From Escherichia coli (GTDB taxonomy: Bacteria > Pseudomonadota > Gammaproteobacteria > Enterobacterales > Enterobacteriaceae), in NCBI RefSeq assembly GCF_003334355.1, contig NZ_QOWP01000050.1: 15,734 nt of DNA; one strand, 5' to 3'. Positions 10,008 to 10,835 of this stretch are shown piece by piece; the first letter of the stretch is position 1; every line of letters starts with the position of its first letter. Below the pieces are notes generated by a model, which did no database searches, was not told where the DNA came from, and saw only the letters and a program-made list of their open reading frames with translations. A program made the position numbers and the translations under genes.

Positions 10008-10835
10008 TTAAGGCGTTTCTTTAATCCCATCAACGAATCCCTGCAACTCCTCCACCGTGCCATTAAACACATTAAAATCCACCGGACCATTGATGCCATC
10101 TACCTGTCCACGGTCGGAATGCTGCCAGAAGCGCCAGGCCATTCCGTCATTGTCCGGACGACGTTGATAATAGTGAGCCACCCACCACGGATATTCATTA
10201 AAATAGCCCGCCAGATTCGTGTGATAAAAAACGGCTCCTGAGTAAATAATCGGCTTTTTTCCCGTGCGTTTTTCTACCATTTTTAGCCACTGACTTACCC
10301 GCTTGCGTAATTCTTTTGCCGATAATTTTCCCCGTTCTTCTACGTCCAGTACGGCAGGGAAATCGCCTTGTGAGAAATCCACCGTTTGCAGAAATAATCT
10401 CGCCTGAACTGAAGCGGATACCGACGGGGAAAAATAATGACACGCCCCGCGCAGCAGGCCATTTTCGCGGCTTAGTTGCCAGTTACGCGAAAAATAGGGG
10501 TCCACCAGCTTTTCGCCTTCCGTCGCCTTAATAAAGGCAAATTGTAAGCGAATACCGTTATCGCGCATTTTTGCCACCCGCTGCCAGTCGATCCGTTCCT
10601 ACCAGCGCGAAACATCTATTCCGTGAATGGTGTAACTGGCAGGAATGCGAATTGCGAAAGATTTAACCGGGCGATAACCGTAGAAGTGGATGTAGTCTTT
10701 AATCTGAACTGCTGTCGAATAGAAAAAATTCACCGTCTGACGCGGATAAATTGCAACGATGGAAATTAGCCCAAGAGCGCATAATAAAGCGGTGAATTTT
10801 TTTCGACTGGTGATTCTCAGCTGCATTGGTTTCAT
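10008..10835 (-). pseudogene. yegX: GH25 (lysozyme-like) glycoside hydrolase gene interrupted by in-frame TAG
   Basis: Two same-frame ORFs (10599..10835, 78 aa; 10008..10577, 189 aa) are separated only by a TAG at 10599..10601. Read through, they give about 272 aa with a signal/TM N-terminus and a GH25 domain (GIDVSRW ... AVLDVEE). Confidence 0.6.

Follow-up and report, generated by a model that had tools for sequence, protein, structure and literature searches.

Several GH25 muramidases have been solved structurally, among them Cellosyl (1JFX), the lysozyme of B. anthracis (2WAG) and the autolysin of C. perfringens (4KRU). These enzymes are intact, and Asp9, Asp98 and Glu100 are the residues which we take to be the catalytic acids of Cellosyl. 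The YegX protein of Escherichia coli aligns with all three at the catalytic positions and at the GAYHF motif, and adds a hydrophobic N-terminus of about 70 residues. In E. coli K-12, yegX (WP_001351783.1, 272 aa) is uninterrupted and is located in the gene order thiM-thiD-yegX-yegW-yegV. A literature search on yegX returned only genome-wide screens, transcriptomes and false matches, and no biochemical or functional study. The function of YegX itself is uncharacterised biochemically, so that any "loss of muramidase activity" ascribed to the gene is deduced solely from family membership.

Of 5,426 complete E. coli genomes, 5,425 contain the gene, and 5,424 have a near full-length match ("glycoside hydrolase family 25 protein"). 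Best matches display at least 95% identity in 5,395 genomes, and almost always fall in the range of 95–99%. Pairwise dN/dS values among intact alleles (K-12, Ec1120, VL40) are 0.07–0.09, which indicates that intact yegX is under strong purifying selection (dN/dS about 0.08). Low dN/dS and near-universal presence together imply that the normal state of yegX is a functional, uninterrupted gene. A different kind of precedent is provided by laboratory amber mutants that are rescued by glnV44 (supE44): these carry the same type of change, CAG to TAG, and glutamine is restored by the suppressor.

The window analysed here is a stretch of 15,734 nucleotides of E. coli DNA (contig NZ_QOWP01000050.1 of assembly GCF_003334355.1). 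It is colinear with K-12 over gatCBAZY, fbaB, yegTUV, yegW, yegX, thiDM, rcnR, rcnAB and yehA. ORF lengths are as expected from K-12 for all other genes of the window, and an internal interruption is found in yegX only. The conserved position between thiD and yegW, together with high nucleotide identity (96.7% to K-12 over all 828 bases), identifies the interrupted gene as the yegX orthologue; it has the same neighbours, the same GH25 domain and the same catalytic motifs as its K-12 counterpart. The differences between the two alleles include the codon that is TAG in the window and CAG in K-12, and residue 132, which is Cys in the window and Tyr in K-12.

The yegX reading frame and its interruption

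On the minus strand, positions 10835 to 10008 form a single continuous frame of 276 codons with one sole internal stop, translated as ...HGIDVSRW*ERIDWQRVAKMRDNG.... The ORF list breaks this frame into two same-frame ORFs, 10599..10835 (78 aa) and 10008..10577 (189 aa, GTG start); the seven same-frame codons ERIDWQR link the TAG to the GTG at 10577. The RefSeq start of yegX is the second ATG (10826), giving 272 aa, while numbering from the ATG at 10835 gives 275 aa and is used below unless stated otherwise. The features of the locus are as follows.

10008..10835, minus strand: yegX reading frame, GH25 family, pseudogene (translation, Pfam, annotation at the matching locus)
10602..10835, minus strand: N-terminal remnant of 78 aa (75 aa from the ATG at 10826), including D74 (translation, Pfam, Cellosyl alignment)
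10599..10601, minus strand: premature amber TAG, codon 79 from the ATG at 10835, Q76* in RefSeq numbering (direct read)
10008..10598, minus strand: C-terminal remnant with the larger part of the GH25 barrel, DxE motif D164/E166 included (translation, ORF list, Cellosyl alignment)
10616..10614, minus strand: D74, opposite Asp9 of Cellosyl (1JFX)
10346..10344, minus strand: D164, opposite Asp98 of Cellosyl (1JFX)
10340..10338, minus strand: E166, opposite Glu100 of Cellosyl (1JFX)
10440..10442, minus strand: second lesion, TAT to TGT, Tyr132 to Cys in the GAYHF motif, private to the sub-lineage of the window

When glutamine is restored at codon 79, the Pfam profile PF01183 (Glyco_hydro_25) matches residues 73–248 of the protein over model positions 1–180 of 180 (E = 1.1e-52). 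The restored protein also aligns with the solved muramidases 2WAG, 4KRU and 1JFX with E values of 1e-27 to 5e-33, and an NCBIfam scan of it returned no family. The stop thus falls between the first catalytic Asp, D74, and the DxE pair, D164/E166. The N-terminal remnant holds a basic and then hydrophobic N-terminus, which by its composition is probably a signal peptide or membrane anchor, followed by the first few GH25 residues. The C-terminal remnant is devoid of an export signal and of the first catalytic Asp; its candidate restart codons are the GTG at 10577 and the ATG at 10568, and gene callers choose the 186-aa ORF from the latter. From this distribution of residues we infer that neither fragment would be enzymatically active.

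The profile match over the whole domain and the presence of the catalytic-acid codons place the gene in the GH25 family. An uninterrupted frame for the whole barrel, as expected of a functional member, is absent, given the TAG at codon 79 and the replacement of the GAYHF Tyr by Cys. The yegX of the window is a gene remnant of the GH25 family and not a working member.

The sequence at the lesion in K-12 and in Ec1120, the closest intact allele with 4 differences from the window, is TGG CAG GAR, as compared to TGG TAG GAA in the window. Judged from these orthologous codons, the lesion is a single C to T transition that converts CAG (Gln) to TAG. Deamination at a Dcm site (CCWGG) was considered as a cause and rejected: the wild-type context TGGCAGGA is not CCWGG, and no special hot spot is needed to account for the change.

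A sequence-only reading of this DNA had described a GH25 gene, yegX, in which a single TAG splits one frame into two ORFs: the upstream one carries a signal or TM segment and the GIDVS motif with the first catalytic Asp, and the downstream one carries the DVEE motif. Translation and the ORF list bear out the split, the Pfam match and the K-12 context thiD-yegX-yegW bear out the identity of the gene, and the Pfam match and Cellosyl alignment bear out the arrangement of the motifs. Its proposal of one CAG to TAG change as the cause likewise agrees with the alleles of K-12 and Ec1120; the codon in orthologues turned out to be CAG, as it had predicted.

Rarity and inheritance of the amber allele

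The occurrence of the allele was determined with probes of 40 nt centred on the codon, in which each 28-base megablast seed word spans the mutated base, so that matches come from allele carriers only. Among the complete E. coli genomes, the following matches were obtained.

TAG probe, background of the window: 1 of 5,426 genomes (PSS-12, from human faeces, Ecuador)
TAG probe, K-12-type background: 0 genomes
CAG control probe: 61 genomes

PSS-12 carries the identical TAG at the same codon, and its yegX equals that of the window at 826 of 828 bases; over positions 74..15734 of the window, only 7 of 15,661 positions differ between the two. The allele is already known, since RefSeq flags yegX of PSS-12 (NZ_AP027697.1, AABK13_RS22590) as a pseudogene with "internal stop".

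Independent carriers were found by exact look-up of the 75-aa N-terminal and the 186-aa downstream products. No record exists for the 78-aa version of the N-terminal fragment in an exact look-up; the 75-aa version (RefSeq start) was found, and this exact product has been called in independent assemblies, with the GenBank entries BEB93588.1 and OWD78281.1 both labelled E. coli. Sequencing runs with the TAG are given below.

SRR3823860: TAG, identical to the window over 6.2 kb
ERR4578542: TAG, on a contig (listed for 6 samples) that matches the window exactly over 11 kb
SRR6680331: TAG, contig listed for 13 samples
ERR10766742, ERR180834 and SRR24680064: TAG carriers

Altogether, the TAG is seen in at least 6 distinct contig versions from separate runs, representing at least 3 haplotypes, and in the complete genome of PSS-12. 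Its presence in independent read sets marks it as an inherited allele of a small lineage, and not as a sequencing error or an event of a single strain. An error of sequencing or assembly that conceals a true CAG has nothing in its favour beyond its general possibility and is refuted by the same TAG in independent assemblies and a complete genome; we assign it a negligible probability. The proposal of the sequence-only reading that this may be a strain-specific nonsense allele is upheld in the part concerning nonsense, while "strain-specific" has to give way to "lineage-specific", as the allele is common to PSS-12 and several independent read sets.

With a high degree of confidence, we regard the yegX of the window as an ordinary lineage-specific nonsense (loss-of-function) pseudogene in an IS-rich genome. 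According to this model, a spontaneous C to T change in an ancestor of a small E. coli lineage, comprising the strain of the window, PSS-12 and a handful of sequenced isolates, would have turned the Gln codon CAG at position 79 of yegX into TAG. Translation would end after 78 residues (75 from the RefSeq start), so that the peptide made would be short and comprise the hydrophobic N-terminus and no more of the GH25 domain than its first strand, and the remaining 196 codons, with the DxE catalytic pair, would be left untranslated. Any product of a restart at GTG 10577 or ATG 10568 would be devoid of the export signal and the first catalytic Asp. Freed from selection, yegX would then gather further damage. 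The observations fit what is expected of a nonsense pseudogene: a sense codon is present in orthologues, the stop is confined to one clade, supE is absent from PSS-12 (see below), and further degenerative changes are seen. The loss itself was, as we infer, neutral rather than selected.

Suppression, restart and selected loss as alternatives

The sequence-only reading had also raised the idea of a conditionally expressed muramidase, in which the amber is read as Gln by a supE-type suppressor; another suppressor tRNA or efficient readthrough would likewise yield full-length enzyme. A change from CAG to TAG is of precisely the kind at which a glnV (supE) suppressor would reinstate the wild-type residue. 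However, in PSS-12, which has the same TAG and is nearly identical to the window over 15.6 kb, the asnB-proximal tRNA cluster (located by synteny, with anticodons read directly) contains four tRNA-Gln genes with normal anticodons, two TTG and two CTG, and both tRNA-Gln(CUG) genes, glnV and glnX, are wild type. Unlike strains with glnV44 (supE44), this closest complete relative therefore has no such suppressor at glnV/glnX, and rescue of the supE type is unsupported. A probe for the supE anticodon (CTG to CTA) matches 157 of 5,426 genomes; among the 60 of these 157 that were listed, almost all are named laboratory K-12 derivatives (C600, DH5alpha, DH1, RR1 and S17-1 being examples) or bear K-12-type labels, and PSS-12 is absent among these 60. 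Programmed readthrough or recoding finds no support in the distribution of the stop, as the TAG is missing from 5,425 of 5,426 complete genomes, whereas a stop used for programmed recoding should be shared by orthologues. The Tyr132Cys change and an apparent break by an IS element (see below) argue against maintained function as well. Taken together, a suppressed, conditionally active YegX appears very improbable, and this proposal of the earlier reading was not sustained. As for a split gene, in which restart at GTG 10577 or ATG 10568 provides a cytoplasmic GH25 fragment of 186–189 aa with a retained or new role, both codons lie 22–31 nt past the stop, gene callers predict the 186-aa ORF, and a weak Shine-Dalgarno-like element, GGGTGG, is located 5 nt upstream of the ATG at 10568. 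Such a fragment would nevertheless be devoid of the Cellosyl Asp9 equivalent, the first barrel strand and the export signal; in the window it bears Tyr132Cys as well, and in ERR180834 it is apparently broken again, so we consider a functional split gene just as improbable as suppression. On sequence alone, low-level natural readthrough of UAG, or restart at one of the two codons, may still take place in the pseudogene.

A further alternative is positive selection for inactivation of yegX in certain E. coli lineages that are host-adapted and rich in IS elements, in which case the amber codon would belong to a set of convergent knockouts; if true, adaptive loss of an envelope-facing GH25 muramidase would be a loss of the pathoadaptive or 'antivirulence-gene' type. 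Other disruptions came from an exact look-up of the 186-aa C-terminal fragment in a collection of about 15 billion proteins, a procedure that recovers only disruptions between the in-frame GTG35 and ATG90.

W78* (TGG to TGA): ERR4036362
W84* (TGG to TAG): SRR32288595
Q85* (CAG to TAG): SRR6106813
IS1 insertion at nt 192: ERZ28761984 and SRR28786000
2-nt deletion at nt 259-260: SRR14321972

These independent null alleles are found on different haplotype backgrounds, and yegX is split by IS1 in the complete genome 200088, all of which speaks for selected loss. On the other side, the search is limited to GTG35-ATG90, where only five nonsense codons are accessible by transition (Q44, W78, Q79, W84, Q85), and the four nonsense alleles occupy 4 of these 5. 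A nonsense hot spot at codons 78–85 was accordingly rejected: the clustering is expected from ascertainment and mutation spectrum. Each knockout allele is rare, intact alleles are under the strong purifying selection described above, and a collection this large can be expected to contain occasional null alleles of a non-essential gene. Selected loss hence appears unlikely, albeit somewhat less so than suppression or restart.

The preferred reading as a lineage-specific nonsense pseudogene adds one more documented gene loss in an IS-rich E. coli lineage, which by itself matters little. It does illustrate that natural isolates can lose YegX, even though this uncharacterised GH25 protein is nearly universal and under strong purifying selection. 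PSS-12 and other naturally yegX-null strains may possibly serve as ready-made controls for work on the function of YegX.

A side observation concerns protein clustering: YegX proteins of 186 and 272 aa share a 90%-identity cluster with many GntR regulators of 248 aa (YegW, encoded next to yegX). The grouping is probably an artefact of the clustering, perhaps due to fused gene calls.

Signs of further decay and genomic surroundings

The Tyr132 to Cys change results from the base at position 10441 of the window, where A is found in all other sequences compared; the Cys132 variant is also present in SRR3823860 and ERR4578542. The affected Tyr of GAYHF is conserved in the solved GH25 structures 2WAG, 4KRU and 1JFX. 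In PSS-12, Tyr132 is retained, and a synonymous change private to this strain is found at window position 10770. The yegX gene makes up 5.3% of the compared length and holds 2 of the 7 SNPs between the window and PSS-12 (binomial P = 0.049), an enrichment that is marginal at n = 7 SNPs and is suggestive but weak.

In ERR180834, the contig departs from yegX at nt 512, just past the DVEE motif (about position 10323 of the window), and continues at contig positions 3504..3532 with a foreign tail of 29 nt, GGCTTTGTTGAATAAATCGAACTTTTGCT. By its sequence, this tail looks like an IS element end or terminal repeat. It presumably resembles an inverted repeat of the IS903 type, and is too short for similarity tools. 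If the tail is indeed an IS end, it would constitute a second hit on the yegX pseudogene.

IS elements are also found at both ends of the window. The first of these, at positions 1..73, is the terminal part of an IS4-family element (named IS421 by PGAP), located 26 bases from the gatC stop codon, with gatD displaced. We take this element to be IS186-like. The same IS421/IS186-type junction is found in the unrelated strains VL40, D5 and elppa10, while gatD is intact at this place in PSS-12. Recurrence of the junction in unrelated strains and its absence from the near-identical PSS-12 suggest a preferred insertion site. At the other end, positions 15658..15734 are the end, or terminal repeat, of an IS1; yehB, the fimbrial usher gene that follows yehA, is cut short by it. 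The insertion in yehB is identical in PSS-12, where it is annotated as IS1B and a partial usher pseudogene, and rrrD of PSS-12 is truncated by an IS.

At position 13116 of the window, codon 9 of rcnA is CAG, and rcnA is intact with 274 aa. PSS-12 differs by a private amber at this codon, Q9* (TAG), and the rcnA annotated there begins at a start codon further downstream and has 777 nt; with Q9*, an amber mutation has arisen a second time, independently, in this lineage. The lineage is accumulating IS insertions and pseudogenes, yegX among them, and this IS-rich context fits the expectation for a decaying genome. The length of the rcnA product (window 13092..13916) also varies among close relatives, with 274 versus 271 aa; an indel within rcnA displaces the alignment, and presumably lies in the His-rich region of RcnA.

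Two RNA elements of the window were identified with Rfam, both above the gathering score. One is naRNA4, a REP-type nucleoid-associated RNA at 4586..4656 on the minus strand, between gatY and fbaB; the other is a TPP riboswitch at 12511..12607 on the minus strand, upstream of thiMD.
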